From the NCBI GenBank assembly GCA_029210775.1, contig JARGGI010000001.1, positions 16,493 through 80,492 of the forward strand: DNA of 64,000 nucleotides, written 5' to 3'. Positions within the stretch are counted from its first letter, which is position 1; the number at the start of each line of letters is the position of its first letter. The notes under the pieces were generated by a model. It had not been told where the DNA came from and did no database searches. It worked only from the letters and a program-made list of their open reading frames with translations. This stretch comes from Patescibacteria group bacterium. Lineage in GTDB: Bacteria; Patescibacteriota; Minisyncoccia; JAHIHE01; JAGLIN01. This document shows, piece by piece, positions 233 through 41,821 of the stretch. The translations under genes were made by a program, and so were the position numbers.

Positions 233-1700
<1,468 letters not shown>

Positions 1701-3190: not shown

Positions 3191-3225
3191 AGAATAAGTT
3201 ATTATCCAAATATTTGTGTGAGAAA

Positions 3226-3262: not shown

Positions 3263-3333
3263 GTTTCGTTGTTGATAAAAATGCGTTTTTATAACAGATA
3301 TAATTATGTTGGTTTTGTATTAATAAATACTTT

Positions 3334-3465
3334 GAATTATGAAATGTCTTTCTGAGCGAAATAAAGAATCACAAAATTACGCATACAGAACTTAATGAAA
3401 GGATTATTATGTCACTTTAATTCTTGAAGTAATAATAGTATTTTGTATTTTGTAATTCAAAATAA
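3334..3465 (+). repeat. intergenic repeat family D, copy 1 (about 130 bp; second copy 31779-31906)
   Basis: GAATTATGAAATGTCTTTCTGAGCGAAATAAAGAATCAC...GTATTTTGTAATTCAAA aligns about 80% with 31779-31906. Confidence 0.7.
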
Positions 3466-4089: not shown

Positions 4090-7150
<3,061 letters not shown>

Positions 7151-7258
7151 TAATTGTGTTTTTTGTTTTTTCAAAAAGTGCAATTCAATGATTAACTAGC
7201 TGTTAATGGTTGTAATATTATTGATAAATTTATTTTATATAATTTAGTACAAGAATTC

Positions 7259-7376
7259 TCTGGTGATTTTAGCGATGAGGTCACACCTGATCCCATCTCG
7301 AACTCAGAAGTTAAGCTCATTAGCGCCGATGGTACTTGCTCCGTACGGAGTCGGGAGAGTAGGTCGTTGCCGGAGA
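7259..7376 (+). rRNA. rrf: 5S ribosomal RNA
   Basis: TCTGGTGAT...CCCATCTCGAACTCAGAAGTTAAGC...GCCGATGGTA...GAGAGTAGGTCGTTGCCGGAG canonical 5S helices. Confidence 0.9.
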
Positions 7377-14310: not shown

Positions 14311-14415
14311 TAATATTATTTCATATAAATTTGGTCCTTCTTTAAAGGATAGTCCTTTAGTGTTTTTTTGTTTTATATCACTATATTAACCAGCCTTCCT
14401 TTCACAAAAATCACT
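14311..14415. repeat. X' (14311-14337) and Y' (14354-14415) repeat copies; Y' contains the last 12 codons of leuS
   Basis: see 13019-13112. Confidence 0.8.
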
Positions 14416-17400: not shown

Positions 17401-18437
17401 TTTGCTTGTAAAATATATTTTTCAACTTCACTGTAGTTTTCAATATTATCTTTTAATTTTTCAATTAAACTGTGTTCGGGCGATAAGACCATATAAGTAC
17501 ATCCGAAAAGAGTGTCGGGGCGAGTGGTGAAAACTTTAATGCTACTGTCATTGCAAGCGGAGTGAAGCAATTCTGAATTTATAGGCGAAACCTGTATTTG
17601 ACTGGATTGCTTCGTCGCTTTGCTCCTCACAATGACAGAAAATTTAATTTCTGCTCCCTCTGACTTTCCAATCCAATTAATTTGTTGGGTTCTGATTTTA
17701 TTTAAATAATCAACCGAATCTAAATCTTTAATTAATCTGTCAGCATATTTTGTAATTCTCAGCATCCATTGTCTCATTACTTTTCTTTCTGCTAAGGCAC
17801 CACATCGCTCGCACGCACCATTAACGACCTCTTCATTAGCTAGTCCAATTTTGCAACTGGGACACCAATTAATCGCCATCTCTTTTTCATAAGCAAGTCT
17901 ATGATTATCAATAAATTCTTTTTTTTCAATTTCATTCAAATTTTTTGGAATTTTTAAATCTTCAATCGGTTTTGCTTTATCTGATTTTTTATCATAAAAA
18001 CTATTAAACAGTTTCAAAAAAATCCATTGCGTCCATTTATAATATTCTATGTCTGTAGTGTTAATTTCTCGCGACCAGTCAAAACTAGGTCCATAACTTT
18101 TTATTTGGCGTGTAAAATTTTTAATATTATTCTTCGTGACAACTTTTGGATGAGTTTTTGTTTTGATGGCAAAATTTTCCGTAGGCAAACCAAAAGCATC
18201 CCAGCCAATTGGGAACATTACATTATATCCACTCATCCTCCTTTGGCGGGCAACAATGTCAATGGCAATATGACTCCGAAGATGTCCTACATGAAGCCCT
18301 GCTCCAGATGGATATGGAAATTCAATTAAACAATAATACTTTGGTTTTTTTGTAAAATCTTTTGCATCATATATCCCACTTTTATCCCATTTATCTTGCC
18401 ATTTTTTTTCAATATTTCTAAAATTGTATTGTTTCAT
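14373..18437 (-). CDS. leuS: leucyl-tRNA synthetase, 1354 aa, with embedded Nudix, ASCH-like and HAM1/ITPase domains plus a MITE-derived in-frame insert
   Basis: HIGH=HVGH, CP1 TTRPDTLFG, KMSKS present, C-terminal anticodon-binding region; perfect Nudix box GGIEEGETAQEAGKREIQEETGY; HAM1 blocks ATNNQGKLKE / ADDSGLCINTLDGRPGVFSSRY / RGTRGFGYDSIF. Confidence 0.9.
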   Translation of the reverse strand: MKQYNFRNIEKKWQDKWDKSGIYDAKDFTKKPKYYCLIEFPYPSGAGLHVGHLRSHIAIDIVARQRRMSGYNVMFPIGWDAFGLPTENFAIKTKTHPKVVTKNNIKNFTRQIKSYGPSFDWSREINTTDIEYYKWTQWIFLKLFNSFYDKKSDKAKPIEDLKIPKNLNEIEKKEFIDNHRLAYEKEMAINWCPSCKIGLANEEVVNGACERCGALAERKVMRQWMLRITKYADRLIKDLDSVDYLNKIRTQQINWIGKSEGAEIKFSVIVRSKATKQSSQIQVSPINSELLHSACNDSSIKVFTTRPDTLFGCTYMVLSPEHSLIEKLKDNIENYSEVEKYILQAKNKSDLDRTDLAKEKSGVELKGIKAINPASNEEIPIWIADYVLSSYGTGAIMAVPAHDERDFEFAKKFGIKIKEVVAPLFKVFSGDDVIRPEKKTVRQKIVIAFLKHWNEDKYLCLDWKKFNWHTGIIGGIEEGETAQEAGKREIQEETGYKNLKFIRHLGSEQYNTFFNRHKDENRYSVEQGLLFKLEDESLEKPSEEETINHNTVWIDSDKMDDFLNLSNQKMLWQRLIGKAGCFKEDGVNVNSDFLNGLETPEAKKEITAWLEKNKLGKKAVNFKLRDWIFSRQHYWGEPIPIVKCKECGLKKLNIKMELNFRVNKIWDQIICRKKTVETRAFNPEEKDKYFGNIKIGDFIKINNKNTNEFEVIKINKVYNFENLEKLFNKKDLIKKIIPNTKIRSFKELEKCFSFTNDYLNKIQKNGLVGWEFEIINITKNIPLNEKNLPLELPNVKNYEPTETGESPLANIKKWVEVKCPKCKGEAKRETDTMPNWAGSSWYFLRYLDPKNKKEFASRKKIEYWMPVDLYNGGMEHTTLHLLYSRFWHKFLFDLGYVNTREPYAKRRSHGMILAENGQKMSKSRGNVVNPDDVIKQYGSDTLRLYEMFMGPYGDAIPWNTTSLIGMNRFLERVWNMQKKIKKHNIVNSNVETQDFAFPYKNKIILIATNNQGKLKELKNHLANFNIISLKDIDKSIEEPEENGKTFAENSLIKAKYYAQKTGYLTIADDSGLCINTLDGRPGVFSSRYSEGDYKKAYQKIFKELVDKKDRSAYFQSVVTLYNPKDKKYNQFEGKCEGEILEKSRGTRGFGYDSIFMPNVLNKSFGECSSEDKYRFDHRKQATDKLIEYLQKSTQDSAFLQDQKIESLLHKTIKKVTEDIENMKFNTAISQMMILLNEMEKEKMIFNSQYSIFLILLSPFAPHITEELWEMLGEKKSIHLQSWPKINPLFIKETEINLVIQINGKLRDQIKVPANISEEEAKKLALESEKIQKWIAGKEVRKVIFVKGRLVNIVI
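17545..17638. repeat. MITE-like palindromic element (TGTCATT family) inserted in-frame inside leuS CP1
   Basis: CTGTCATTGCAAGCGGAGTGAAGCAATTC...GGATTGCTTCGTCGCTTTGCTCCTCACAATGACAG; encodes SVIVRSKATKQSSQIQVSPINSELLHSACNDSS between EIKF and VFTTRPDT. Confidence 0.8.
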
Positions 18438-29272: not shown

Positions 29273-29824
29273 ATGAAGAAATTACCGATTATAAAAAACA
29301 GTAAATGGGTTGATTTTATGTCTTCAAAAAAGATTGATATTTCCGGAAAAGTCATCTTAATGAGTTTTTGGACATATCCTTGTGTTCAATGCGATCGACA
29401 TATGCCATATCTAAGAGAAATTTGGAACTCTATAAATCATGATAAATTTTTGATTATTGGTGTTTACACTCCAACCTCTAAATATGGAATTGACAAAAAA
29501 AGCACAATGGACATTGTTATAAGTTTGGATATAAATTGGTCTGTAATATTTGATAATGAATATAAGTTTTGCCAAAAATTTCAAAATGAACTTTGGCCAT
29601 CTCTTTATTTATTTGATCAAGAAAAGAATCTTGTCTACGGTTGTTATGGGAAATTTAAATATATTGAATTAAAGGAAAATATAAAAAATCTTTTGAAAAA
29701 AAATCACATAGTTTCGAACATTTTCGAAAATAAGAACCCTGAAAATGTTTGTTTTATAGAAATTCCAAACACAAAAAAGGATGATATCAAGAAATCAATT
29801 ACTGAAGATTGTAAACTTTTGTAA
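29273..29824 (+). CDS. thioredoxin-fold redoxin (CxxC = CVQC)
   Basis: SFWTYPCVQCDRHMPYL thioredoxin-like active-site context. Confidence 0.55.
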   Translation: MKKLPIIKNSKWVDFMSSKKIDISGKVILMSFWTYPCVQCDRHMPYLREIWNSINHDKFLIIGVYTPTSKYGIDKKSTMDIVISLDINWSVIFDNEYKFCQKFQNELWPSLYLFDQEKNLVYGCYGKFKYIELKENIKNLLKKNHIVSNIFENKNPENVCFIEIPNTKKDDIKKSITEDCKLL

Positions 29825-29889: not shown

Positions 29890-30768
29890 TTATTGCTGAA
29901 GACAATCATTAAATAATTCAATCTGCTTATTATATTCAGCAATCAATTCTTTTTGTTCGTTTATAAGAATGTTAATTTGCTTTACAATTAAATTGTAATT
30001 ATCAATCATATTATTGTAAGTTTTGATATCTTTCCTTGTTTTTAAATTCATTGATTTAATTGAATTTCGAAGAGAGATTGAATTTTTTTCAAGATTTGAA
30101 ATTTGGTTTTGATTATTTTCGATTTCAGTTTTCAAATTTTGATTTACTTTTGGACAATCAGAAAATGGTCTGGCGAAAATTTGAACACCAATCCATGTTT
30201 GATGATTTTCGTAAAAACCTTTTTTTACAGCAATTCCAATTTCAGTATAACTTGTGTTGAGTATATTTGCTCTATGTCCTGGGCTATCCATCCATGCCTG
30301 AACAAGAGTTTGATCATCTTTGAAATTTCCCAAGGCAATATTTTCACCTATAGAAATATATTCGTAATTTACATCTTTTGCGATATCCGACGCTCCAAGC
30401 CCTTCGGGGGAAATATGTTCAAAATATTGCTTAGCAAACATATCTTCAAGTCTTGCCATTGCAATTTCATCAAGCATATCGTTTTTTAAAAGTGCCGGCA
30501 AAGATTTTGTTTCGTCTCTTTGAATGTTCGTCCAATTTAAGACCCCTTCTTTTGTTAAAAATGAATTTTCAGAATTTTCTCTGCTGACAAGTGGTGATGG
30601 AGTATTTATATTTCTATCAATTTCCTTTAATAAATTTTCACTAAATTTTTTTTCAAATTGTGGAATTTGTTCAAAATCAAAATTTGGAAAATTTTCTCCA
30701 ACAAAAGAAAACGCAAACCAAATTAACACAAAAAGAATAAATGAAAATGTAAGAAATTTTTTAATCAT
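29890..30768 (-). CDS. secreted CAP/SCP (PR-1-like) domain protein with coiled-coil C-terminus
   Basis: Signal peptide; WMDSPGHRANIL...YTEIGIAV CAP motifs. Confidence 0.65.
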   Translation of the reverse strand: MIKKFLTFSFILFVLIWFAFSFVGENFPNFDFEQIPQFEKKFSENLLKEIDRNINTPSPLVSRENSENSFLTKEGVLNWTNIQRDETKSLPALLKNDMLDEIAMARLEDMFAKQYFEHISPEGLGASDIAKDVNYEYISIGENIALGNFKDDQTLVQAWMDSPGHRANILNTSYTEIGIAVKKGFYENHQTWIGVQIFARPFSDCPKVNQNLKTEIENNQNQISNLEKNSISLRNSIKSMNLKTRKDIKTYNNMIDNYNLIVKQINILINEQKELIAEYNKQIELFNDCLQQ

Positions 30769-30924: not shown

Positions 30925-30990
30925 GCTTATCTCTGTCATTGCGAGGAGGTACGACGTGGCAATCCCGCAAATTTGTCATCCGGTCCGAAA
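30925..30990. repeat. solo arm of TGTCATT MITE family
   Basis: TCTCTGTCATTGCGAGGAGGTACGACGTGGCAATCCCG. Confidence 0.7.
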
Positions 30991-31906: not shown

Positions 31907-31999
31907 GCAATAAAAAAATTTAATTAAATTAAATCTTTTCTTCTGTTGATTTTTTAAATTGATAGTGAAAATAAGCAGAAGATTAAGGAGAATAAATTT

Positions 32000-33358
32000 A
32001 TGAGAAGTAAAAAAATATTAGCTTCTCTTGCACTACTTGCAGTTGTGGTAGTTTCAGCATCAATGTTCGCTGCATTTGAAGCTCATGTCATTAATGTGAC
32101 AGCAAAAATTGAAAATGCCTTAACAGTCCCAATTAATCACATTGATTTTGGAACAGTGTTTCCACAAGAACAACTTGATAGACCTTTAGAAATCGCTCTA
32201 TCTGATTCATTTATAGCAGAAAACAGAGTTGATGATGTGGAATATATGATTCGTCAAAAACCAAAATGCGCTATAACGACAAATGAAGGAATAAATTTTG
32301 ATCCTGATTTTACAAAAACAGGACACATTGTCTTGGGTAGTGATGGAACAGCGACAATTGAATGTGGTGAACCAACGAGAGATTTGACAGAAGGCGAAAG
32401 TTGGGGTGTTCTACCTTCACTTTGTCCATATCTTTCAAAACATAAAGCTGAAAACGATCCAGATGACAATCAAATAGGAATTGAAAAGGAAGTTGACGCT
32501 TTTCACCAACCATATAAAGTAATTCAAAATTCAGATAGCAGTTATAGTTTAGTTTATAATGAAGCAAAAGGAAGACTTGCAAAAACAGATAGTGACACAG
32601 TTGATAACTGGGTTATTGACCTTAAAGTTCCTTGTTTTGGAAATCATTGCGCTCAAGACTGGGAAAATTTTGTAACTGGAATTAATCCAGATGCAATTCC
32701 AGCTGATTATGTTCAAGAAATTGGTGATGAGCATAAGATTTTCGGATGTGATTTGTGGGTTGAAGTTACTGAAGTTTCAGAAGACAATGGAGATCTTGCT
32801 TGTTCAAATGCAGATGTAATGCTTGTTCTTGACAGATCTGGAAGTATTGCAACTGACCTTCAAACTCTCAAAGACGCTGCAACAAATTTTGTTACAGCTT
32901 TAGCTCCAACTTCTACTGGTGTTCATATAGGACAAACAAGTTTTGCAAATGTTGGTTCATTAGATTTAGGTCTTTCATATGATGTTTCAGCTATTAATCT
33001 CGCAATATCTGGTTTAAGTTCTGCTGGTTATACAAATTTAGCAGATGGGATTTTGTTTGCGAGCACTGAATTAGCCAGTGGTAATGACAGAAATGATGCA
33101 GACAATCCAGATTATATGGTTGTTATCACCGATGGTGATCCAAACTATCCAGATGCTTCAACTGCTGAATCCTTAGCAACAGATGCAGCAAATGCAGCAA
33201 GAGCTGCTGGTACCAAAATTTATGTTGTGGGCGTAGGAAGTGCTTTAAATGACGTCTATTTAAGTCAAAACATTGCAAACCACACAGGACAATATTATAG
33301 CGTTGCTAATTATTCTGATTTATCTGCAGTTTTTTCTGGAATTGCAACCTGTAACTAA
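32000..33358 (+). CDS. secreted vWA-domain protein (452 aa) with SipW-cognate-like signal/EAHVINVTAKIEN motif
   Basis: SD AAGGAGAATAAATTT-ATG; signal peptide; MIDAS DRSGS (LVLDRSGSI), TDGDP; paralog of 36674-37879. Confidence 0.8.
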   Translation: MRSKKILASLALLAVVVVSASMFAAFEAHVINVTAKIENALTVPINHIDFGTVFPQEQLDRPLEIALSDSFIAENRVDDVEYMIRQKPKCAITTNEGINFDPDFTKTGHIVLGSDGTATIECGEPTRDLTEGESWGVLPSLCPYLSKHKAENDPDDNQIGIEKEVDAFHQPYKVIQNSDSSYSLVYNEAKGRLAKTDSDTVDNWVIDLKVPCFGNHCAQDWENFVTGINPDAIPADYVQEIGDEHKIFGCDLWVEVTEVSEDNGDLACSNADVMLVLDRSGSIATDLQTLKDAATNFVTALAPTSTGVHIGQTSFANVGSLDLGLSYDVSAINLAISGLSSAGYTNLADGILFASTELASGNDRNDADNPDYMVVITDGDPNYPDASTAESLATDAANAARAAGTKIYVVGVGSALNDVYLSQNIANHTGQYYSVANYSDLSAVFSGIATCN

Positions 33359-33449
33359 TTCTGTTTGCTTAAATTTAAAGTGATTATTTTAATTACTTTT
33401 GACTCTGCGTCTTTGAATTAAGGCGCAGGGGACTGAGGTCGTTAAAAGT

Positions 33450-33842
33450 ATATTGTTATTGCGAGCGAAGCGTGGCAATCATGCGACTATGTCTGTCATT
33501 GCGAGCGAAGCGTGGCAATCCCGAAATAAATTCAGAAAGTTATAATATATCGTTTCGTGAATTTAGACTTGAGATTGCTTCGTCGCTATGCTCCTCGCAA
33601 AGACAATGTTATTCCTCTGTCATTGCGAGCGAAGCGTGGCAATCCCGAAATTAGTTTCAGAAAACTGTAATATATCGTTTCGTGAATTTAGACTCGAGAT
33701 TGCTTCGTCGCTATACTCCTCGCAAAGACAAACACAAGAAAAAAAAGTTTTATGTTAATAAACTCGAGATTGCTTCGTCGCTATACTCCTCGCAAAGACA
33801 GAGATAGATTGTCACATCGCTATGCTCCTCGCAACGACAAAC
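33450..33842. repeat. array of about 4 tandem/partial copies of the TGTCATT MITE family (about 110-120 bp units)
   Basis: alternating arms TGTCATTGCGAGCGAAGCGTGGCAATCCCGAAA and GATTGCTTCGTCGCTATRCTCCTCGCAAAGACA separated by a conserved core ...CGTTTCGTGAATTTAGACTYGAG. Confidence 0.85.
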
Positions 33843-34020
33843 ATAGTAAAATTTGAAAAATTTATATAAACAGTATACAATGTATGCAATAAATATTAAC
33901 AAATCAAAAATGGAAAATGAAAATTTAGAAAAAGATGAAAATTTACGAGAAGATTTGACACAAGAAAACGAAACAATTACAAAAAACGAAGAAGTAAAGA
34001 TCGAAGAAAAATCTGAAGGT

Positions 34021-34461
34021 ATGAAAAAAATTCAGAAAAATAAAATGACACCGAAAAAGATTTTGAAAATCGCTGCCCTTTTTATAGCATTCTTTCTGGT
34101 CTGGTTTACAGTTGTGCAATATATCACTGCTGATAAATATGAAGCGGTAGTCAAAGTTATAGAAGAAGGAGGAAAAGTTGGAGTGAATCCAATGACAGAG
34201 CGACTTGATTATGGAGATTTACCAAAAGGAAATGCATCAACAAGATTTATTACAATTGAAAATAGTGGGAGTATGGATATTTTCGTTGTAGTTGTAAAAT
34301 ATGGTGGAATCGCTGAACTAATAAAGATTAACGAAAATAATTTTGTTCTTTCATCGGGAGACAAAAAAAAGCTTGAATTGACACTTAATATGCCGATCAG
34401 TGCGAATAAGAAAGGATATGAAGGAAAAATTGTAATATTTAAACTACCGAAATTGTTTTAA
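34021..34461 (+). CDS. small signal-anchored Ig-like-fold protein (ORF track 33853; likely start Met 34021 after GAAGGT SD)
   Basis: MKKIQKNK..KILKIAALFIAFFLVWF anchor; LDYGDLPKGNASTRFITIENSGSMDIFVVVV Ig-like (DUF1573/ASH-like pattern). Confidence 0.55.
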   Translation: MKKIQKNKMTPKKILKIAALFIAFFLVWFTVVQYITADKYEAVVKVIEEGGKVGVNPMTERLDYGDLPKGNASTRFITIENSGSMDIFVVVVKYGGIAELIKINENNFVLSSGDKKKLELTLNMPISANKKGYEGKIVIFKLPKLF

Positions 34462-34595
34462 ATCCTAATGTTGTTCTAAATTTATTTCTGAATCTATTGA
34501 GTAGTAGAGTTTGTCTATGGTTTATTTCACAATAACAGATGTAATAGTTAGAAGATCCTGAACTAAATTCAGAATGACGATATAAAACGAAAAAA

Positions 34596-35021
34596 ATGAA
34601 CAAAAAAAAGAAATCAATAATTGAATTTATTATATATTTAGTCTTTGTTGGCGCAGTTGCAATTGGAACGCCGAAAGCCTTAGTTTATGCTCTTGGAACT
34701 GACTATCCGATTGCATCCATAACTTCCGGTTCAATGTGGCCAGAATTGAAAAAAAATGATTTGGTACTCATTAAATATGCTGAAAAAAAAAGTCTTGCAA
34801 AAGGAGATATAGTGGTTTTTAAAAATGAAAGAGGTTTTACAATTCATAGAATAGTTGAATTAAACGAAGACACAATTACGACAAAAGGGGATGCAAATAA
34901 TGTTTCTGATTCTCCTGTTGAGTATGAAAAAATTATCGGTAAGACTGTTAATTGGAATAATAAGCCAGTTAGAATTCCATATTTAGGCAGACTGACAATT
35001 TGGGCTTCAAATCGACGATAA
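34596..35021 (+). CDS. signal peptidase I, archaeal/ER type (SipW-like, S26 family)
   Basis: N-terminal TM, SITSGSMWPELKKNDLVLI (SGSMxP box), short 141-aa length typical of SipW/SPC18 type. Confidence 0.75.
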   Translation: MNKKKKSIIEFIIYLVFVGAVAIGTPKALVYALGTDYPIASITSGSMWPELKKNDLVLIKYAEKKSLAKGDIVVFKNERGFTIHRIVELNEDTITTKGDANNVSDSPVEYEKIIGKTVNWNNKPVRIPYLGRLTIWASNRR

Positions 35022-35108
35022 AGCTATATAATTAAAAACTGTATGTATAATTTCTCAATTCATTTTATTCGTTTGATGAATAATATTCATTAGATATAAT
35101 CAAAAAGT

Positions 35109-36539
35109 ATGATCGGAAATTTTAAAAAAATTAGGTTTAAGAGAAGACTTAGAAAACTTCGTTTTATAATTTTTACTTTTTTAAAAAACACTTTAGTGTT
35201 AACCAGCATTGCAGGATTTGTTGTGGCAAGTGTGCCAATATTCAGCGCCTATGAGGCTCATGTCATCAATGTCACAGCCAAAATTGAAAACGATATTCCT
35301 ACCATTGATCCTCCAGGTGGTTATTTCTGTAACGACGGTAGTTTGACAATGAAATTATTCACTTCAATAGTTGGAGCAAATATTATATATACAACTGATG
35401 GAACGAACCCAGACTGTTTTGCACCGAATGGCATAATATACTCAGCGCCATTTCCTTTAACATATAGTGCAACGGTTAAAGCCAGAGCATGTCATGATGA
35501 CAATCAGAGCGTTACTGTGAATAAATATTTTGATGTTTCTTCACAATATTGTGAGGAAAAGAAATATTGTGATGCTCGTTCAATTGGCTATTGGCAAAAT
35601 CATGAAGGTTGTCCAGCGAGCAGTAATTGGTCTGCTGAAATTAATGCTTTATCTTTGGGTGAATTATCAGGAGCATTTGGAACAATTTCAGGATCAGATA
35701 TTTGTTTCTATTTGTCTCCAAAAAATTGTCCTGCTGCAAAAACAATTGAAGGAAAACTTTGTCAAGCAAAAGGAAAAACTCTTGCAAATTTATCAAATAT
35801 TGGATCAAATCATTTAGATCTAAACGCTCTGATTGCAGGATCTGATGATGGAAATAAAGCATTTGATAATTTGGGTTTAAATTCATCTTCAACGGTTAGA
35901 GAAGCTTTGTTTAAAATTGAAAAAATCATCATAGATGTGTCTGCAACAAAAAGAGAATTGACTGATGCAGCATATGTTGCTGAAAGAATTTATGCTTTTT
36001 ATGAAGAAGAAAATGAAAATACACCATGGTGTTTTTATGGAGAAGTTGAGCTTAATCTTCTCACAATTCCTCTTGTCAAAGAACTACCCGCATCTGTGTG
36101 TGGAAATGGAAATTTAGATATTGATATTGGTGAAACTTGTGATGATGGAAACACAATTAGTGAAGATGGTTGCTCTGAAATTTGCCAGATTGAAACACCG
36201 ATTGAAGAATCAAAAGATGAAAAGCCCCCAGAAGCAGAGCTCCCAATTGTTGAGGAAGAACTGATTTCAGAAATTCCAGATGAAGATCCAATTACAGAAG
36301 AATCTCTAATTCAACAATCTGTTGAAGATCCTGTCGTTGAAGAATCTTTTACAGAACCACCTCTAACTGAAGAAACTGACAAAATAGACCCTACTAATGA
36401 AGATTTCACATCAGAACCTCAACAAGAAGATCTTTCTGTTGAAAAGCCGATACAAGAAGATATTTCTACTGAAAAACCCGGCCCTAACGACTCTTCGGTT
36501 GAGTATTCAGAATTGCTGACACCGTCTATAATCTATTAA
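35109..36539 (+). CDS. secreted protein with SipW-cognate-like motif, chitobiase/hexosaminidase C-terminal-like domain, Myxococcus-type Cys-rich repeat and acidic Pro/Glu-rich tail
   Basis: AYEAHVINVTAKIEN; IIYTTDGTNPDC...; CGNGNLDIDIGETCDDGNTISEDGCSEICQIE. Confidence 0.7.
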   Translation: MIGNFKKIRFKRRLRKLRFIIFTFLKNTLVLTSIAGFVVASVPIFSAYEAHVINVTAKIENDIPTIDPPGGYFCNDGSLTMKLFTSIVGANIIYTTDGTNPDCFAPNGIIYSAPFPLTYSATVKARACHDDNQSVTVNKYFDVSSQYCEEKKYCDARSIGYWQNHEGCPASSNWSAEINALSLGELSGAFGTISGSDICFYLSPKNCPAAKTIEGKLCQAKGKTLANLSNIGSNHLDLNALIAGSDDGNKAFDNLGLNSSSTVREALFKIEKIIIDVSATKRELTDAAYVAERIYAFYEEENENTPWCFYGEVELNLLTIPLVKELPASVCGNGNLDIDIGETCDDGNTISEDGCSEICQIETPIEESKDEKPPEAELPIVEEELISEIPDEDPITEESLIQQSVEDPVVEESFTEPPLTEETDKIDPTNEDFTSEPQQEDLSVEKPIQEDISTEKPGPNDSSVEYSELLTPSIIY

Positions 36540-36550
36540 CAAATAAACAA

Positions 36551-36643
36551 TGTCATTTCAGAATTTATTCCAAAGCAACAGCTTTTGAATAGAAATCTGA
36601 GATAGAGCTTACCTTGTTTTATTAAAACTTTTCTGGAATGACA
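36551..36643. repeat. MITE-like element, TGTCATTTCAGAA...TTCTGGAATGACA termini
   Basis: 13-bp terminal inverted repeats with one mismatch. Confidence 0.6.
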
Positions 36644-36673
36644 ACAACAGTGACAATTAATAGAATCTAAGCA

Positions 36674-37879
36674 TTGATTAAATATATGAAATTCAATTTG
36701 AAAAAACTTAAAACGATTGTCACAGTTTCATCGCTTCTGTTTATAAGCGTGTTATTTACTGTGTTTTTTCAAAATAATGTTTCAAAAGCAAATTCAATTT
36801 TAAGTCCTATAATTGTGAATTTATTAAATCTTGAATTTAGCGTAGTATTTCCTGGGGAACAATTACATCAAAACTTTCTTGTTTCCTATTCTGGAGATGG
36901 AAGCGGAATTTATACTATCACTGAGAAATATAAACCTTTACCAACAGCTGAAGTTCCAGTCGGATATGTCGGAAGTATAAGTGATTATTGTCAAGAAAAT
37001 TATGAAGATTATACAAGATGCTATAAAACTCTTTGTCCTTATATGACTGAATATAGTGAAGAAGGAGAGGGAGATCTTATAAATTCAGCATCTGTTGGAC
37101 CAAATGATTCATCTGATGATTGGGTTGTTGCCTTGAGCGTGCCAGCGATTATGGGAAATGTTGCGCAAGATCATACTGGCGGAATCATTACTGAAAACGG
37201 AGCTTATGGATGCGATCTTTCATTTGATGTTGAACGAATATGTGAAAACAAGCCTGTTGATATAGTTTTGATTATGGACAGATCCGTGAGCATGGGTCCC
37301 ACATATGACAACCCTTCAAGATTGTCTCAAGCGAAAACCGCTGCCAATTCATTTTTAGGAAATTTAGGAAGTAATGACCAGTCAGCTTTGGTATCCTATG
37401 CAGGTAGTGCGTCTTTAGATAAGGGATTATCTGCAATTCATATTACCGATCCAGCATCAACTGAAACTGCAGTAAACGCTCTTTCGGCCTCTGGAAGCAC
37501 AAATATTGGTGATGCAATTGCAAAAGGAACCGCAGAATTTAGTTTAGGTAGAGAAAATAATCAAGCCGTAAAAGTAATGATTCTTCTCACGGACGGTAAA
37601 CCAACTTGTCCTGTTATTCATGAGGGATATTCTCAATGTGGATATGTACAAGATCCAGGAGATGTTGATCATGCAGAAAATATGGCGATATTGGTAAAAC
37701 AAGCTGGAATTAAAGTCTTCACAATCGGACTTGGCGATAACGAGAAAATAAACGAAGATATGCTTCAAAATATCGCATCATTGAAAAGTGATGGAGTAAC
37801 TCCTGAATATTATTATGCCCCAAACGGAAGTGATTTGGAAGGGATTTATGATGAGATTTCAGGGGAACTTTGTCAATAG
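36674..37879 (+). CDS. secreted vWA-domain protein (401 aa), paralog of 32000-33358
   Basis: VLIMDRSVSM MIDAS, LLTDGKPT; shared blocks FxxVFPxEQL, DxWVxxLxVPxxxGNxAQD, GCDL with protein 32000. Confidence 0.8.
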   Translation: MIKYMKFNLKKLKTIVTVSSLLFISVLFTVFFQNNVSKANSILSPIIVNLLNLEFSVVFPGEQLHQNFLVSYSGDGSGIYTITEKYKPLPTAEVPVGYVGSISDYCQENYEDYTRCYKTLCPYMTEYSEEGEGDLINSASVGPNDSSDDWVVALSVPAIMGNVAQDHTGGIITENGAYGCDLSFDVERICENKPVDIVLIMDRSVSMGPTYDNPSRLSQAKTAANSFLGNLGSNDQSALVSYAGSASLDKGLSAIHITDPASTETAVNALSASGSTNIGDAIAKGTAEFSLGRENNQAVKVMILLTDGKPTCPVIHEGYSQCGYVQDPGDVDHAENMAILVKQAGIKVFTIGLGDNEKINEDMLQNIASLKSDGVTPEYYYAPNGSDLEGIYDEISGELCQ

Positions 37880-37999
37880 TTATGAGCTTAAAGTAAGCGC
37901 CTTAATTAGAATATAATTTCCAATTAAAGCGTTTGCTCTAATCGGCAAACAAGAGGGAAGCCGTAGCGAATGACACCAGTCCTAATACGACTTCTCTCA

Positions 38000-38230
38000 A
38001 ACTACTTGAAAAAATATAAATAAAAATACAAAAAATACAAAAAAAAATTACCCAACTTATAAAAATACATAAAAAAAGAAACACAAAATATAACAAAAAA
38101 AACAAAAAAAGATTAACATAAATATAAAAAAGCGAAAAACAAAAAAGTCAAAAACACACAAAAATAACACTCAAGAAAAACGCGCGAAATAAAAGAAAAA
38201 CGCACAAACAAAGCCTATATAAACAATGTT
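38000..38230 (+). repeat. about 230-bp strand-asymmetric A+C-rich low-complexity tract (almost no G/T on + strand)
   Basis: AAAAATACAAAAAATACAAAAAAAAATTACCCAAC...AAAACGCGCGAAATAAAAGAAAAACGCACAAACAAAGCC. Confidence 0.8.
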
Positions 38231-38298
38231 TTTTAAAAAATACAATGATTTAGGTGGTTTTTGATTTGGTCTATTTACACATTTAAAACAGTGTAAAG

Positions 38299-38423
38299 TG
38301 TCATTCTTTTATAATGTCATTCTGAATTTATTTCAGAATCAATCGTCCCTTACACTTTGTTCTCAAGATAAATCACAGACAAACCAATAATCTAAAAGAT
38401 CCTGAAACAAGTTCAGGATGACA
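38299..38423. repeat. MITE-like element of the TGTCAT superfamily immediately upstream of the 932-aa gene
   Basis: TGTCATTCTTTTATAATGTCATTCTGAATTTATTTCAGAATCA...GATCCTGAAACAAGTTCAGGATGACA. Confidence 0.6.
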
Positions 38424-38474
38424 CTTAAAAACAATAAAATTATTTTTATATATATTATTAATTAATTTACACTT

Positions 38475-41273
38475 ATGAAGAAAATTAGCAAACAACCAAA
38501 AAATGGCACTCAAAAGAAAATAGCTTCATTTGGTATAATTTCCTTGTTGTTAAATGTTGTTATGACAAGTGTGTTACTTGCGCCTTCAGAAGATGTTCTC
38601 GGACAAGGAGTTGAACAAGTATGTGAAAACAAGCCTGACTCATATGTTTCAGAAGATGATGATGAATATAAAGGCAATGTTTTGATAAACGAATTGATGT
38701 GGATGGGAACTTCAGTTTCTACGGCAGATGAATGGATTGAATTAAGAAATATGACACCAATTGAAATTAATTTCAATAATACTCCTTGGTCAATATATAA
38801 AAATGATTCACGTATGCTTGTAATTAGCAGCGGAATACTTAAAGGGTGTGGTTATTTTCTTGTTTCTAACAATAGTGAAAATCATAAGTTTACTAACGGA
38901 GAATCTGTCCTAAATATCACTCCTGATTTCATCGACAAATCAGTTTCTCTTTCTGATTCTTCGGTTCAATATAAACTTTATGATACGGAAAATAGCGAAG
39001 GAAATCTTATTGATACAGCTGATGATGGTTCAGGCAAAGTTTTAGCTGGAGAATACACACCTGAAAACAATTGGAAATCAATGTCAAGAAGAACTGCCCA
39101 AGACGGAACTTTAGCAGAAAATTGGTGCACCGCTCAAACCAGAGTAAATTGGGACGCTAAAACCCCAGAATTTGGAACACCAGGCGCTGAGAATATCTGT
39201 AACAGAATTTCCGGTTACAAATTTAACGATGTAAATGGTAATGGCACTTGGGATAAAAACGAGTCTGATTCTGAACCTGGTCTTAACGAATGGATAATAA
39301 ATCTTTATGGTAATTTAATTACCATTACATCGACAGTAACTGATGTCTTGGGATATTATGAATTCAAAAATTTGTTAGCAGGAACATATTTCGTCAAAGA
39401 AGAAATTAAAAATAAATGGCAACAAACAACTCCAGTAGATCCAGATTATTTTGAAATTGATTTGACAGATAATCCAATATCTGACGATATAAACTTTGGA
39501 AATCAGTTAATATCAGTTTGTGGAAATAAAACAATTGAAGATGGAGAAATGTGTGACGATGGAAATATAGAAAGTGGAGACGGATGTTCCAGTGAATGTC
39601 AAATTGAAAATACAGCTTCAATTTCTGGATGTAAATATGATGATGAGAACAATAATTCAAAAGTTGATGAAAAAGAAGGAAAGTTAAGCGGTTGGGAAGT
39701 TCAACTGATTGGCTGTCCATATTCTTCAGAAGGAGATTTCCTACCAAAAACTAGTATAAATGAAAATCCACAAGAAGGCGAAGTCGGATATTGCTCGGTA
39801 ATCAAAACTACAACCACCACTACTGACGGTTGCTATAGTTTTGAAGGTCTTTCCGCTGGAGATTATGGAGTTAATGAAGTAGATCAAGAAAACTGGACAC
39901 AGACTTTTCCAACAAATGGAATGTTCTATTCTTTTAATCTGACAGATGGTGAGGCAAAGACAGATGTTGACTTTTTGAACCACGAAGAGACTACACCTCC
40001 TGAATGTTCAGGAGAAGAAACACAAAATTGTTATGGTGGTCCTGGAGGAACGGCAGGTGTTGGGATTTGCCAAGCAGGTATCCAAACTTGTGTTGATGGC
40101 AATTGGAGTCAATGCAGTGGTCAAGTTACTCCTCGAAGTGAAATTTGTGGAAATGGTATTGACGAGGATTGTAATGGTTCTGATGCAGGCTGTGGAGGTT
40201 CTGGTCCAATTCCGAAACCAACAATCATAATCACGAATGAAAAAGTTTCCTATCTTGGAAGTGGAAGCGCATTAGTAACATGGACAACTAATATTGAAAC
40301 AACCAGGCAAGTTGCCTATGGCGATAATTCAATCACCCTTCTTGGCGCTGTTCCAAAATATGGATATGACTCAGTTAATGAGGAGTCAGATAATATGACA
40401 AAAAATCACAGCGTCACAATTGATGAACTGACCGATGGAATTCCATACTATTTTAGACCAATTGCTGATCGACCTGGATCAACGGGGGAAAAGGTTGGAA
40501 TTGAAGTTTATTATCAACCCGGAGAAGTGAAAGGAGTAACCGACCCAGTTGTGCCAGAAGTTGAAGAATGTAATTATCTTTTTGAATATATCAAGTTTGG
40601 AAAAGATAATAATCCTGTTGAAGTTCAAAAACTTGAATCATTCTTGAATATATTTGAAAGTGAAAGTCTTGCTATAAACGGGATCTATGAACAAGTTGAT
40701 TTTGATGCTGTTTCAAGATTTCAGGAAAAATATTTTGAAAAAGTTCTTTCTCCTTGGAACCATGACAGCGCAACGGGATATGTCTATATCACAACAAAAA
40801 AAAGAATTAATGAAATTTATTGTGAAAGAGAATTTCCTTTAACAAAAGAACAAGCGGAAGAAGTTGCGCGATATGACACACTATTTGGCATAAGAGCACC
40901 AAGCGCTGAACAGCCAGCAGAGAGCTTTGATATAGAAACTGGTGCGGGTGCGACTACTACTACTCCAGAAAGTGGAATTGAGAGCACAGAAGGCGAAAAT
41001 GAAGGCACTGAAGGCCCACAGATTGAACTTGGGAACGAAAAGGAAAGCGGAGAAGTGGCTGGAACAACTGATGAAGTAAATGCAGATAATGGTGAAGGCG
41101 AGGTCGAAGAAATCAACAGTGAAACTGAGGAAGAAGTTGTTTATGCTGATAGTGGATATTCAAATTTATATTTCTGGATACCAGTTATATTACTACTTAT
41201 AATTATTGCTATTATTTATTATGTTACAAAGATGAAAAAAGGTGGCAATGATGCAGGATCGTCAACAGAATAA
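38475..41273 (+). CDS. large surface adhesin-like protein (932 aa): signal peptide, lamin-tail-like domain, two SdrD-B/CNA-B-like domains, Myxococcus Cys-rich repeat, Cys-rich module, FN3-like domain, acidic region, C-terminal TM anchor
   Basis: GNVLINELMW...EWIELRN; ISGYKFNDVNGNGTWD; CGNKTIEDGEMCDDGNIESGDGCSSECQIE; C-term IPVILLLIIIAIIYYVTKMKKGG. Confidence 0.75.
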   Translation: MKKISKQPKNGTQKKIASFGIISLLLNVVMTSVLLAPSEDVLGQGVEQVCENKPDSYVSEDDDEYKGNVLINELMWMGTSVSTADEWIELRNMTPIEINFNNTPWSIYKNDSRMLVISSGILKGCGYFLVSNNSENHKFTNGESVLNITPDFIDKSVSLSDSSVQYKLYDTENSEGNLIDTADDGSGKVLAGEYTPENNWKSMSRRTAQDGTLAENWCTAQTRVNWDAKTPEFGTPGAENICNRISGYKFNDVNGNGTWDKNESDSEPGLNEWIINLYGNLITITSTVTDVLGYYEFKNLLAGTYFVKEEIKNKWQQTTPVDPDYFEIDLTDNPISDDINFGNQLISVCGNKTIEDGEMCDDGNIESGDGCSSECQIENTASISGCKYDDENNNSKVDEKEGKLSGWEVQLIGCPYSSEGDFLPKTSINENPQEGEVGYCSVIKTTTTTTDGCYSFEGLSAGDYGVNEVDQENWTQTFPTNGMFYSFNLTDGEAKTDVDFLNHEETTPPECSGEETQNCYGGPGGTAGVGICQAGIQTCVDGNWSQCSGQVTPRSEICGNGIDEDCNGSDAGCGGSGPIPKPTIIITNEKVSYLGSGSALVTWTTNIETTRQVAYGDNSITLLGAVPKYGYDSVNEESDNMTKNHSVTIDELTDGIPYYFRPIADRPGSTGEKVGIEVYYQPGEVKGVTDPVVPEVEECNYLFEYIKFGKDNNPVEVQKLESFLNIFESESLAINGIYEQVDFDAVSRFQEKYFEKVLSPWNHDSATGYVYITTKKRINEIYCEREFPLTKEQAEEVARYDTLFGIRAPSAEQPAESFDIETGAGATTTTPESGIESTEGENEGTEGPQIELGNEKESGEVAGTTDEVNADNGEGEVEEINSETEEEVVYADSGYSNLYFWIPVILLLIIIAIIYYVTKMKKGGNDAGSSTE

Positions 41274-41290
41274 AATAGTTATATATTTGC

Positions 41291-41319
41291 AAAAACCCGG
41301 TTGACTTGATCGGGTTTTT
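41291..41319 (+). terminator. rho-independent terminator of adhesin gene
   Basis: AAAAACCCG-gttgacttgat-CGGGTTTTT. Confidence 0.7.
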
Positions 41320-41329
41320 GTATTTGTTT

Positions 41330-41702
41330 TCTTGCGATGACATAGGTTTGTCTTTGCGAGGAGGAACTCGGGATTGCCACACTTCGCTCGCAAAGACAGA
41401 TAAAAAAACTATACGAAATTAAATTTGGGATTGCCGCTCTTCGCTCGCAATGACAGAGGAATAACATTGTCATTACGTGGAGGAACTCGGGATTGCCACG
41501 CTTCGCTCGCAAAGACAGAGGAATAACATTGTCATTGCGAGGAGGAACGACGAAGCAATCTTGAGTCTAAATTCACGATACGATATATTACAGTTTTTTG
41601 AATTTAAATTTGGGATTGCCACACTTTGTTCACAAAGACAGATAAAAAAACTATACGAAATTAAATTTGGGATTGCCACACTTTCCTCGCAATGGCAAGA
41701 GC
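41330..41702. repeat. second array of TGTCATT MITE family, opposite orientation to the 33450-33842 array
   Basis: 41530-41640 is the reverse complement (about 85% identical) of the unit at 33600-33730; additional short-form units TGTCTTTGCGAGGAGGAACTCGGGATTGCCACACTTCGCTCGCAAAGACA. Confidence 0.85.
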
Positions 41703-41821
41703 AACGGTCAAAATAACAAAAAAAGGGAAATAATATTCTAAACGATATTTCTTTTTAAAAAAATTAACAAAAACGGAAAAATAGAGTAAAATTAAATTAG
41801 ATTAATTTAAATCTTTTAAAT

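Follow-up and report, generated by a model that had tools for sequence, protein, structure and literature searches.

What kind of surface system is encoded by a group of exported-protein genes that surround a SipW-like signal peptidase gene in this Patescibacteria genome? We analyzed the whole 64,000-nucleotide stretch of DNA in which these genes lie (the window), for which a sequence-only reading had proposed a dedicated secretion and processing system of the TasA/SipW type that builds an adhesive surface structure. As described below, much of the operon logic behind this proposal was recovered, although the candidate subunits are not members of the TasA family.

Gene content and genomic setting of the cluster

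Six consecutive ORFs, named A to F here, are located on the plus strand between positions 32000 and 41273. By ORF and domain searches, the six same-strand genes, the domains that had been named for them and a shared 13-aa motif proved to be real. The genes and the neighboring repeats are the following.

Gene A, 32000 to 33358, plus strand: 452 aa (NCBI MDF1497765.1); signal peptide, motif, N-domain and VWA domain.
Repeat array, 33450 to 33840, no strand: REP/MITE-like palindromic repeats with units TGTCATTGCGAGCGAAGCGTGGCAATC and GATTGCTTCGTCGCTATRCTCCTCGCAAAGACA.
Gene B, 33880 to 34461, plus strand: 193 aa as called by NCBI; the ORF opens at 33853, and alternative starts are found at 33853, 33880 and 33910.
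Gene C, 34596 to 35021, plus strand: 141 aa (MDF1497767.1); signal peptidase I of the S26B (Sec11/SipW/archaeal) type.
Gene D, 35109 to 36539, plus strand: 476 aa (MDF1497768.1); motif, no N-domain.
Gene E, 36674 to 37879, plus strand: 401 aa; signal peptide, degenerate motif, En domain and VWA domain.
Gene F, 38475 to 41273, plus strand: 932 aa (MDF1497770.1); its own signal peptide, no motif.
Second repeat array, 41350 to 41700, no strand: REP/MITE-like, inverted relative to the array at 33450 to 33840, 3' of F.

The module had been thought to sit between MITE arrays and far from the housekeeping context, and neither description fits. The first array separates A from B within the cluster, and the other one is located 3' of F; a lone copy of the repeat was also seen at 30934. 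Genes for TypA, an AhpC-like protein, a flavin reductase, malic enzyme and XseA directly adjoin the cluster, and an rRNA operon (233 to 7375) is found in the same window. A median of 95 nt separates the last N-domain gene from B in related loci. The array at 33450 to 33840 is an insertion between A and B and stands outside the protein system.

The cluster represents a conserved operon of Parcubacteria

Next, the gene order was compared across related loci from Parcubacteria genomes of many candidate phyla. The order N...B-C on one strand was observed in 56 of the 58 loci with enough downstream DNA to be judged, so that the possibility, raised earlier, of a SipW homolog that is never syntenic with the vWA/N-domain genes falls away. 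The conserved order consists of one to four N-domain genes, then B, and then C, with B and C usually overlapping or abutting. Gene C is often followed by a motif-bearing protein with variable domains and by a diverged N-domain protein, and the gene after C in relatives always has the motif ahead of unrelated domains (29 proteins, called D-position here). The cluster of the window is one copy of this operon, which is conserved in Parcubacteria/Paceibacteria (CPR).

Gene C encodes a Sec11/SipW-class signal peptidase

The product of gene C had been described as an archaeal/ER-type signal peptidase I with an SGSMWP box, and this description was borne out. It matches TIGR02228 (sigpep_I_arch) with 82.3 bits against a cutoff of 51.85 and also scores above the cutoffs of Peptidase_S26 and Peptidase_S24. 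A TM helix spans residues 8 to 24 at the N terminus; a second TM helix is missing at the C terminus, where the 141-residue protein has no hydrophobic segment. The boxes SGSMWP, IHRI and GDAN align with SGSMEP, VHRV and KGDNN of human SEC11A/C, which places the catalytic residues at Ser46 (nt 34731 to 34733), His84 (nt 34845 to 34847) and Asp99 (nt 34890 to 34892). The earlier reading hinged on the S26 catalytic Ser and His, and both are present on the alignment. Moreover, ITSgSMWP, TIHR and TkGDAN are conserved in 58 C homologues. Altogether, C is predicted to be catalytically intact and to belong to the SipW/Sec11 class.

We considered whether C might be the general signal peptidase of the organism, in which case its neighborhood would carry no functional specificity. 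CPR genomes are reduced, and no LepB-type peptidase was detected by a regex motif scan of the 64-kb window and about 1 Mb of related loci, both of which speak for a generalist. However, B-C lies right downstream of the N-domain genes in the 56 of 58 loci, which are spread over many candidate phyla, and the stop codon of one gene often overlaps the start codon of the next. Moreover, one MAG contains two full operon copies (L004 and L072), each with its own C, and the invariant substrate motif described below is unexpected for a generalist enzyme. This reading is improbable. An S24-family gene near the operon in L002 was also considered as a housekeeping signal peptidase and was rejected, as it corresponds to LexA.

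A new domain family precedes the VWA domain of protein A

The N-domain of A covers about residues 40 to 265 and represents a family of approximately 240 aa, with 1419 homologues at E<=1e-3 that form 605 clusters of 50%-identity representatives. Only noise was returned by Pfam searches of 31 members at E<=10, and a PDB sequence-profile search with the N-domain gave no match. Judged by these sequence searches, the family is new and has no Pfam or NCBIfam entry. The AF2 model of A reached a pLDDT of 87.7, with motif residues 27 to 34 unplaced (<50). The N-domain is predicted by modeling to be a beta-sandwich of the Ig-like kind; its best, though weak, fold matches are PapD/ASH/MSP Ig domains, and no structural neighbor was significant by Foldseek (all E>0.07). 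DUF1102, CanX and ABP pilin, which are subunits of donor-strand fibres, were also among the weak matches, at the level of a generic beta-sandwich. Related loci harbor many stand-alone N-domain proteins of 250 to 270 aa with no effector domain; the window holds a single N-type gene (A), which carries a bulky vWA domain.

The VWA domain of A spans residues 272 to 444 (PF00092, E=8e-18, 65.7 bits) and has a complete MIDAS of the DxSxS...T...D pattern (DRSGS at 278 to 282, T345 and D378). In E, the VWA domain covers residues 196 to 392 (PF00092, E=2e-18, 67.7 bits), with DRSVS at 202 to 206, T276 and D307. Thus, a vWA protein and a second vWA gene, both with intact MIDAS sites, had been correctly recognized from the letters of the DNA. 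The region of E up to about residue 190 is a diverged and reduced N-domain (En), which matches the N-domain by hhalign with a probability of 99.7% (E=3e-25).

A conserved motif follows the signal peptides of the likely substrates

Six-frame translation of the window gave two identical occurrences, and no more, of a 13-aa stretch, EAHVINVTAKIEN. It had been assigned to the two proteins flanking the peptidase; the identical motif is real, but its carriers are A and D, whereas the flanking proteins are B and D, and A lies two genes upstream. In A, the motif reads AFEAHVINVTAKIEN (residues 25 to 39, nt 32072 to 32116), and in D, where it follows a basic n-region and an h-region, AYEAHVINVTAKIEN (residues 47 to 61, nt 35247 to 35291). 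The degenerate form in E is FQNNVSKANSILS (nt 36767 to 36805). The DNA that encodes the motif is only 82% identical between A and D over 55 nt, and the differences fall at synonymous positions, suggesting protein-level selection rather than chance or a recent copy.

In every N-domain protein, the signal is followed by the consensus AFEAHV(I/V)NVTAxIEN, which was also found after the signal of the otherwise unrelated proteins encoded downstream of C. The motif occurs in 249 distinct N-termini, some of them ahead of unrelated downstream domains, and its columns are invariant within an alignment whose overall identity is only 53%. The motif is amphipathic and has the invariant polar residues E27, H29 and N32. 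This conserved post-signal motif likely marks the substrates of C, which supports the idea of dedicated secretion and processing. Of the three findings named beforehand as fatal to the earlier reading, namely a peptidase lacking its catalytic residues, neighbors lacking a cleavable signal and a lack of synteny, none applies, and this favors the reading. A type IV pilin was rejected by sequence judgement, as the hydrophobic segment lies before the conserved motif rather than after it.

Beyond the motif, D contains an Fn3_assoc/CHB_HEX_C domain (residues 68 to 139), a Cys-rich domain with CDARSIGYWQNHEGC, a myxo-type disulfide repeat (residues 329 to 363) and an acidic/Pro-rich tail. Its earlier description as a Cys-repeat/CHB_HEX_C-like protein was confirmed.

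Gene B encodes a membrane-tethered PapD-like protein

The start of gene B had been set at 34021 but most likely lies upstream, as in the 193-aa NCBI call, which includes an acidic cytoplasmic tail that is kept in homologues. This tail is followed by a TM helix (nt 34060 to 34125) and a single PapD/MSP/ASH-like Ig domain. A motif-like strand, KYEAVVKVIEE, is encoded at nt 34135 to 34167, and its KYEAVVKVI portion corresponds to the first beta-strand of the PapD-like sandwich, right after the TM helix. Comparison of B with the N-domain by hhalign gave a probability of 24%, with the TM plus [FY]EA..V and the LDFG segments aligned, which is suggestive but is not evidence of homology. We propose that B is a membrane-tethered chaperone or anchor.

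Membrane and sortase anchors are found in a single class of exported proteins

The exported proteins fall into three classes. N-type proteins (A here) have the signal, the invariant segment, the N-domain of about 240 aa and an optional C-terminal adhesin domain. D-position proteins (D here) share the same signal and segment, followed by unrelated adhesin-like domains and an acidic tail. En-type proteins (E here) have a degenerate segment and a diverged N-domain, with a vWA domain or a stalk. C-terminal hydrophobic (TM-like) anchors were found in 7 of the 27 En-type proteins and in none of the 152 N-type or 29 D-position proteins. Four of these seven anchored proteins carry an LPxTG-like motif, and in six loci a sortase gene (PF04203) directly follows an En gene with an LPxTG-like end; two of these six sortase-linked proteins (L071 and L067) fall below the hydrophobicity cut that defines the seven. 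Hits to a TLxTC regex were mostly an artefact, as the motif DNA gives AVTLITCAS when translated in reverse, and the sortases were confirmed with Pfam.

Protein F had been read as a lamin-tail, CNA-B/SdrD-like and FN3 protein with a TM anchor. SdrD_B and SpaA scored above the Pfam cutoffs and the C-terminal TM anchor is present (residues 898 to 917, nt 41166 to 41225), whereas LTD and the FN3-like Pur_ac_phosph_N scored below cutoff; Cys-rich-repeat domains were also identified. F and E have the linker VEQVCENKP in common, and En+F fusions occur in L062, L067 and L070. F is probably a detached stalk/anchor module, fused to the En domain in some relatives.

These anchors bring up a sortase pilus of the Gram-positive type, in which C would be an accessory like SipA/LepA of the Streptococcus pyogenes FCT islands and the vWA proteins would be tip adhesins. 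Such vWA tip adhesins are typical of sortase pili, and vWA/MIDAS adhesin subunits are present here too. As here, a signal-peptidase-family gene is known from adhesin/pilus islands with sortases (PMC4049620), F contributes stalk folds of the CNA-B/SdrD/SpaA kind, and a sortase beside the LPxTG-bearing En gene would anchor the base subunit in some relatives. However, no sortase was found in the 64-kb window, and only 8 related loci have one. Moreover, the 152 N-type and 29 D-position proteins, which include the shaft candidates, have no LPxTG or C-terminal sorting signal; therefore, a sortase cannot polymerize them, and a sortase pilus shaft was rejected. In addition, C keeps all its catalytic residues and is of the ER/archaeal (S26B) subclass, whereas SipA is inactive (PMC4049620). 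We consider a sortase pilus very unlikely.

The operon resembles tapA-sipW-tasA in logic but not in family

In Bacillus subtilis, both TasA and TapA undergo processing by the operon-encoded SipW, the donor strand of TasA is the N-terminus of the mature protein, and TapA has the same N-terminal sequence but is otherwise unrelated (PMC9674648, PMC10151520). The likeness to tapA-sipW-tasA comprises an operon-encoded ER/archaeal-type (Ser-His) peptidase among its substrates, a post-signal sequence (the donor strand in TasA/TapA) common to a major subunit and an unrelated accessory, beta-sandwich subunits and an '...A-A-F' junction at the end of the signal. By hhalign, ...WA|AF of TasA is placed over ...FA|AF of A, and in 8AUR mature TasA starts at AFND.

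The same operon logic would be explained if A and E were true, highly diverged TasA/camelysin proteins and the cluster were orthologous to tapA-sipW-tasA. PF12389 homologues have been reported in Patescibacteria (PMC9245690), and the signal plus 'AAF' region can be weakly aligned with TasA. However, PF12389 was absent from the 31 N-domain proteins even at E<=10, and hhalign against a 26-sequence TasA profile gave a probability of 12.4%, from the signal region alone. The SipW-cognate signal TIGR04088 did not match the N-termini of A and D or the homologues P0069 and P0075 at E<=10, while the TasA positive control scored 38 to 42 bits against a cutoff of 19. The fold comparison described above likewise pointed away from the TasA jellyroll that had been suggested for the N-domains, and C scored 51.1 bits against a cutoff of 190 for the Bacillus SipW equivalog (NF046067). 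A true TasA orthologue was rejected by Pfam, profile-profile and fold comparison, and we give this reading almost no credence. Thus, what remains of the proposed SipW/TasA-type module is its operon logic and not its family membership. The operon also differs from tapA-sipW-tasA in its minimal C, which has 141 aa and no C-terminal TM, and in several extras, namely the TM-tethered PapD-like B, several paralogous subunits, fusions to vWA and a base class with anchors (LPxTG plus sortase in some genomes).

Two candidate cleavage sites and an export-only reading

The region around A-F/Y-E-A had been pointed out for cleavage prediction. A Pro at -5 from the motif Phe, present in 154 of the 249 N-termini, is in keeping with A|A-F or A|F as the cleavage site; the best classical -3/-1 fit is instead V-T-A|K inside the motif (V in 246/249 and A in 248/249). 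V-T-A| is also the only plausible site common to N-type and En-type proteins, and in D-position proteins conservation falls away within 3 to 4 residues past it. The N-terminus expected from cleavage after V-T-A is KIENALTVPINHIDFGTVFPQEQLDR.

These features bear on a reading in which the segment serves only specialized export. AFEAHVxNVTA would form an extended c-region in a signal peptide peculiar to this lineage, cut after V-T-A by C and perhaps presented by B, and the vWA, CHB_HEX-like and stalk proteins would be independent secreted or surface adhesins that form no polymer. The near-perfect V-x-A|x site, its being the sole site conserved in En-type proteins and the end of conservation just past it in D-position proteins favor such a signal, and the fold searches of the N-domain yielded no structural evidence for an open groove. 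On the other hand, an invariant c-region of 10 residues that reaches 13 residues past the predicted helix end would be atypical, and the Pro at -5 fits the other site. Moreover, export alone leaves unexplained the one to four paralogous N-domain genes per operon, the stand-alone N-domain proteins with no effector, the restriction of anchors and sortase to En-type proteins and the strict coupling with the PapD-like B. We regard this reading as possible but rather unlikely.

A proposed model of strand complementation

The product of the operon is probably a fibre or an adhesive stalk on the cell surface. The mechanism we favor, with a confidence that falls a little short of even, is a TasA/TapA/SipW-like system made from non-homologous parts, in which a dedicated peptidase and N-terminal strand complementation would build a surface adhesive appendage. 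C would remove the specialized signal peptides, and the conserved amphipathic N-terminal segment would then be donated as a beta-strand to the following subunit, completing its Ig-like N-domain in the manner of TasA/TapA. D-type proteins would only donate and form the distal tip; N-type proteins would both donate and accept, forming a shaft that is vWA-decorated in this window; and En-type proteins would mainly accept, at the cell-proximal base. The motif-like strand of B is uncleavable, and B may therefore serve as a chaperone or primer bound to the membrane. Since only one N-type gene is present here, the product of the window may be a short D-A(n)-E adhesin complex rather than a long fibre.

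The confident modeling of the N-domain with the motif left unplaced speaks for the strand model, as do the motif-like first strand in the sandwich of B, the weak fold matches of the N-domain to PapD/ASH/MSP Ig domains and donor-strand subunits, and the precedent of TasA/TapA, and the confinement of anchors to the En class (7/27 versus 0/152 and 0/29) speaks for the polarity. Conversely, little of the putative donor strand would be left after cleavage at V-T-A|K, and the invariant polar E27, H29 and N32 would be unusual for a purely structural strand. The acceptor groove is assumed, given that the N-domain has no significant structural neighbor, and the lone N-type gene of the window, with its bulky vWA domain, also speaks against the model.

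In more specific form, the operon might tentatively be assigned to a new class of fibre confined to CPR/Parcubacteria, in which PapD-like Ig subunits undergo donor-strand exchange after Sec11-type maturation, the PapD-like tethered B primes or holds them, tips are swappable (vWA, CHB_HEX-like, LTD/SdrD) and the base is TM- or sortase-anchored; we hold this assignment possible and somewhat doubtful.

Comparison with other donor-strand systems

Among archaea, the TasA superfamily includes donor-strand fibres (the ABP pili AbpA/AbpB, the cannulae CanA/CanX and DUF1102 tubes) whose extracellular beta-sandwich subunits are joined by an N-terminal donor strand, as proposed here. However, the scores are at the level of a generic beta-sandwich, archaea are a different lineage, and ABP pili have no dedicated peptidase (PMC9245690), unlike the operon described here. 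Chaperone-usher pili (PapD/FimC) are alike in the proposed chemistry, the strand complementation of incomplete Ig-like subunits with a distinct tip and base. They differ in that B has a single domain instead of two and an N-terminal TM tether, and in that a dedicated SPase handles the signal peptide here, which the putative donor strand directly follows; no usher-like gene was found among the conserved operon genes (N, B, C, D-position and En classes) or is evident in the cluster. In type V pili of Bacteroidota (FimA/Mfa1), N-terminal proteolysis licenses strand-exchange polymerization, tip, shaft and anchor subunits are separate, and the accessory subunit Mfa5 carries a vWA domain. Their donor strand is C-terminal, their precursors are lipoproteins, and the protease is of the gingipain type; no sequence or fold relationship to them was detected.

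Implications for CPR attachment

The literature on SipW/TasA/donor strand, vWA, adhesins and pili in Patescibacteria/CPR/Parcubacteria, as far as covered, did not contain a description of this system; the coverage was incomplete, and a prior description is possible. A large part of bacterial diversity belongs to the CPR/Patescibacteria, many of which are thought to be attached to other cells. To our knowledge, almost nothing is known about this attachment beyond type IV pili. The operon offers concrete candidates for CPR attachment structures, including exchangeable adhesin domains with intact MIDAS sites.

At a minimum, a new protein family is defined by these results, together with a substrate signal of a new class for SipW-like peptidases, and AFEAHV(I/V)NVTAxIEN can be used as a sequence tag for secreted substrates in any Parcubacteria genome. 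If strand exchange is true, the operon would represent a further independent donor-strand assembly, after chaperone-usher, type V and TasA/ABP/cannulae, and one in which a Sec11-type peptidase is combined with a PapD-like fold, joined in some lineages by a sortase. The operon products may form a fibre and mediate attachment to a host. By cryo-TEM, pili-like appendages were seen to connect ultra-small groundwater cells with their hosts (PMC7906910), and the operon occurs in MAGs from the same groundwater in which these appendages were imaged. If the model is true, the fibre may be among the pili-like appendages that link these cells to their hosts.

A conserved gene cluster with generic annotation

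Six ORFs follow one another on the + strand, as the sequence-only reading had it. The products of B and four others are present in NCBI, from a Patescibacteria MAG (158,431-bp contig), under generic names; E, translated from a TTG start, had no exact match in the NCBI protein collection searched.

Genes of the cluster, with NCBI entries and names
32000-33358, + strand, A: MDF1497765, "VWA domain-containing"; an N-terminal region of ~265 aa without assignment, then VWA
33880-34461 (ORF opens at 33853), + strand, B: P1P85_00205, "hypothetical"; TM segment and weak ASH-like region
34596-35021, + strand, C: MDF1497767, "signal peptidase I"
35109-36539, + strand, D: MDF1497768, "FN3 associated domain-containing"; Fn3_assoc/CHB_HEX_C and a myxo-type Cys repeat
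36674-37879, + strand, E: N-terminal region without assignment, then a VWA that ends the protein, without anchor
38475-41273, + strand, F: MDF1497770, "SdrD B-like"; own signal, SdrD_B and SpaA above cutoff, LTD-like and FN3-like below cutoff, Cys repeat, C-terminal TM anchor

The MIDAS residues (DxSxS...T...D) are kept in the VWA of both A and E, so these sites are intact, as first read. The window is bacterial and GC-poor, with an rRNA operon at 233-7375. The cluster had been placed far from housekeeping genes, but its neighbours are just that (TypA, an AhpC-like protein, flavin reductase, malic enzyme and XseA). In divergent orientation, 1.2 kb upstream of A (29890-30768, - strand), lies the gene for a secreted CAP/SCP-domain protein (PF00188) whose C-terminus is long and coiled-coil-like.

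The module had also been described as lying between MITE arrays; instead, one REP/MITE-like array is inside it, in the A-B gap (33450-33840), and an inverted array follows F (41350-41700). The two arrays, 7.8 kb apart, bracket genes B-F and consist of two families of short GC-rich palindromic units, TGTCATTGCGAGCGAAGCGTGGCAATC and GATTGCTTCGTCGCTATRCTCCTCGCAAAGACA. Stray copies occur upstream of A (30934-30964) and inside a 1354-aa ORF on the - strand (17605-17637 within 14373-18437). The small ORFs 33472-33654 and 41279-41716 were rejected as genes, being translations of these repeats. A second small element, with a hairpin (core GATCCTGAA...TTCAGGATGAC / TTCAGAATGACATTATAAAA), recurs immediately before C, before F and where D ends (34549-34595, 38393-38439, 38307-38340, 36534-36567); it could be a terminator/attenuator or another mobile mini-element.

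A large, lineage-restricted domain family and its PapD-like partner

Residues 1-265 of A (the N-domain) retrieved 1419 proteins at E<=1e-3, and all matches with a named source were from Parcubacteria/Patescibacteria. HMMER, run over all 1.84 billion representatives, gave 605 clusters at E<=1e-3 and 271 at E<=1e-30. Among the matches listed, the domain mostly begins at residue 1 or close to it, and the C-terminal extensions behind it vary; many members stand alone, at 250-270 aa, and others are fused to VWA or PF19403. Neither Pfam (31 members scanned, no match at E<=10) nor NCBIfam has a model for this large, lineage-restricted family. Although the alignment is only ~53% identical overall, six Cys are invariant, and A-F-E-A-H-V-x-N-V-T-A-x-I-E-N-A-L is near-invariant right after the hydrophobic signal segment. 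In E, the N-terminal region is homologous to this domain but diverged and shortened (hhalign probability 99.7%); E was therefore correctly called a second vWA paralog.

The AF2 model of A 1-265 (pLDDT 87.7, pTM 0.77) is confident except in the motif (pLDDT below 50 at residues 27-34); Foldseek found no PDB match for it at E<=0.001. B is a conserved partner with a PapD-like fold: in its model (pLDDT 80.6), a TM helix leads directly into a strand, D-K-Y-E-A-V-V-K-V-I, which resembles the motif and precedes seven further strands.

A DUF3105 (PF11303) gene adjoins the operon in two unrelated loci (L001:14656-15213, L002:4886-5554), and AhpC-like genes lie near it in L002 (AhpC/thioredoxin-like) and in the window (29273-29824, 2 kb upstream of A). 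These neighbours may reflect a link to disulfide formation in the six-Cys domain, or coincidence.

Synteny and predicted motif-defined substrates

We compared 75 distinct loci, drawn from genomes of GTDB species and from three metagenome places and spanning Ryan-, Wildermuth-, Vogel-, Giovannoni-, Uhr-, Doudna-, Azam-, Taylor-, Harrison-, Portnoybacteria and others, with ORFs classed by phmmer against the six window proteins. One to four N-type genes (motif plus N-domain), B and C occurred in this order on one strand in 56 of the 58 loci whose sequence extends 1.5 kb or more past the last N-type gene on its downstream side, which decisively contradicts the possibility, raised beforehand, that the SipW homologue and vWA genes are never syntenic. 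B and C are separated by a median of 3.5 nt and frequently overlap. C is usually followed by a gene whose product resembles A or D in the motif alone, and then often by an En-type protein (as E). One MAG, RS_12_54, the closest relative found, carries two complete operon copies (L004 and L072).

In the window, the 13 residues EAHVINVTAKIEN are identical in A (27-39) and D (49-61), absent elsewhere in the six-frame translation, and encoded by DNA differing at synonymous sites. The shared motif reported earlier thus stands, but not its assignment: the peptidase is flanked by B and D. Related proteins form three classes. Besides the N-type, D-position proteins carry the motif followed 3-6 residues on by unrelated domains (Cys-rich "SIGYWxNHEGC", LTD/SdrD_B stalks or CHB_HEX-like modules) and nearly all finish with an acidic/Pro-rich tail; the En-type has only a degenerate motif in the same register, [FL]-Q-x-x-[VL]-[IL]-x-V-x-A. 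The invariant post-signal motif defines the predicted substrate set of the operon.

Read antisense, the motif-coding DNA gives ...AVTLITCASNAAKSG..., a look-alike of the catalytic TLxTC motif of sortases that can mislead motif-based annotation. Spurious antisense ORFs arise from it in the loci generally (e.g., L006:11473-11892 and L026:9991-10593, both - strand).

The peptidase and the comparison with TasA/SipW

C is of the archaeal type, as proposed (TIGR02228, 82.3 bits; cutoff, 51.85), and scores below the cutoff of the Bacillus SipW equivalog (51 bits; cutoff, 190). Aligned with human SEC11A/C, C has Ser46, His84 and Asp99 at the positions of the catalytic boxes; it is a predicted dedicated S26B peptidase with intact catalytic residues.

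The suggested kinship of its predicted substrates with TasA did not hold. B. subtilis TasA, the positive control, matched TIGR04088 (38-42 bits) and PF12389, whereas the Parcubacteria proteins matched neither; hhalign of the N-domain and TasA profiles gave a probability of 12% and aligned nothing beyond the signal, the "AAF" junction and the first strand. We therefore rejected membership in the TasA family, and by these profile comparisons the motif is a new signal class.

The operon logic is nevertheless that of TasA/TapA/SipW. The mature TasA N-terminus (from A28, AFNDIKSK, in PDB 8AUR) is a donor strand; TapA, otherwise unrelated, shares this N-terminal sequence and supplies the first strand; and SipW, encoded between TapA and TasA, processes both (PMC9674648, PMC10151520, PMC9245690). 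The organisation is SipW/TasA/TapA-like but uses other parts: the subunit family and the signal motif are new, the partner is PapD-like, and sortase anchoring is optional.

Proposed assembly and the cleavage site

By this analogy, the cluster products may assemble into a fibre. In the scheme that we put forward tentatively, at somewhat less than even chances, the signal would be cleaved near A24|A25|F26, and the amphipathic FEAHVINVTAKIEN would serve as donor strand for the next N-domain. Assembly would be polar, D -> N(n) -> En: adhesin domains would sit at the tip and line the shaft, En would form the base, and B would be a tethered chaperone, primer or anchor.

The cleavage site is the main weakness of this donor-strand model. 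Among 249 distinct N-termini, the A|F site has A/G at -1 in all 249, but F/L/M at -3; Pro at -5 from Phe (154/249) fits cleavage at this first site. V-T-A|K, which lies inside the motif, conforms almost perfectly to the -3/-1 rule, and no other site is shared with En-type proteins. If cleavage occurs there, the motif would be a specialised signal c-region serving export only, a reading that would then gain but that we hold to be rather unlikely. A mixed scheme is possible as pure speculation: En-type proteins would lose the strand, N-type and D-type proteins would keep it, and En would be an acceptor-only cap.

Class-specific anchoring and sortases

Anchoring is class-specific: C-terminal hydrophobic (TM-like) anchors were found in 0/152 N-type, 0/29 D-position and 7/27 En-type proteins, four of these seven also with an LPxTG-like motif. 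In six loci with an LPxTG-like-ended En-type protein, a sortase (PF04203, E ~1e-19 to 1e-23) is the next gene; two of these (L071, L067) do not reach the hydrophobicity cut by which the seven were counted. L078 has the same arrangement after an F-like protein.

Sortase genes (PF04203) directly downstream of LPxTG-bearing En-type/F-like genes (F-like in L078)
L070:8146-8871, sortase
L062:17614-18330, sortase
L032:18003-18590, sortase
L055:6467-7045, sortase
L071:18153-18755, sortase
L067:5942-6703, sortase
L078:9091-9774, sortase

With sorting motifs varying among LPPTG, LAATG, LPRTG and LPKTG, some Parcubacteria thus combine a SipW-type peptidase operon with a dedicated sortase. The window has no sortase.

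E and F share a linker, VE(R/Q)(I/V)CENKP, whose DNA (28 nt, 93% identical) closes the En domain in E (37229-37256) and comes just after the F signal peptide (38610-38637). Since F also matches the stalk part of En+F fusion proteins in L062, L067 and L070, E and F look like the product of gene fission or a domain swap, vWA replacing the stalk. The E-F spacer (37880-38474, 595 nt) is unusually long, A-rich and of low complexity, with degenerate A-rich repeats at 38009-38114, suggesting that F is served by a separate promoter and may not share a transcript with A-E. F residues 699-783 (40569-40823) form a conserved Cys-bracketed segment (…FGKDNNPVEVQKLESFLN…GIYEQVDFDAVSRFQEKY…TGYVYITTKKRINEIYC) that recurs at the C-termini of F-like proteins elsewhere (L038:464-790, L030:17989-19821); it looks like a peptidoglycan-binding (PG_binding_1-like) module, which Pfam did not score.

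Significance

A full-text literature search found no paper describing this Parcubacteria peptidase/N-domain operon; the ABP paper goes no further than noting that Patescibacteria have PF12389 homologues (PMC9245690). Cryo-TEM of groundwater has revealed pili-like appendages linking ultra-small cells to hosts (PMC7906910). The MAG names of several of the loci compared, such as L015 and L023 (NC_groundwater_*_Ag_S-0.1um), point to samples of that kind, and this match with the imaged appendages is a correlation only. The operon stands out for its striking conservation and modular logic, through which candidate attachment structures of CPR can be tested directly.
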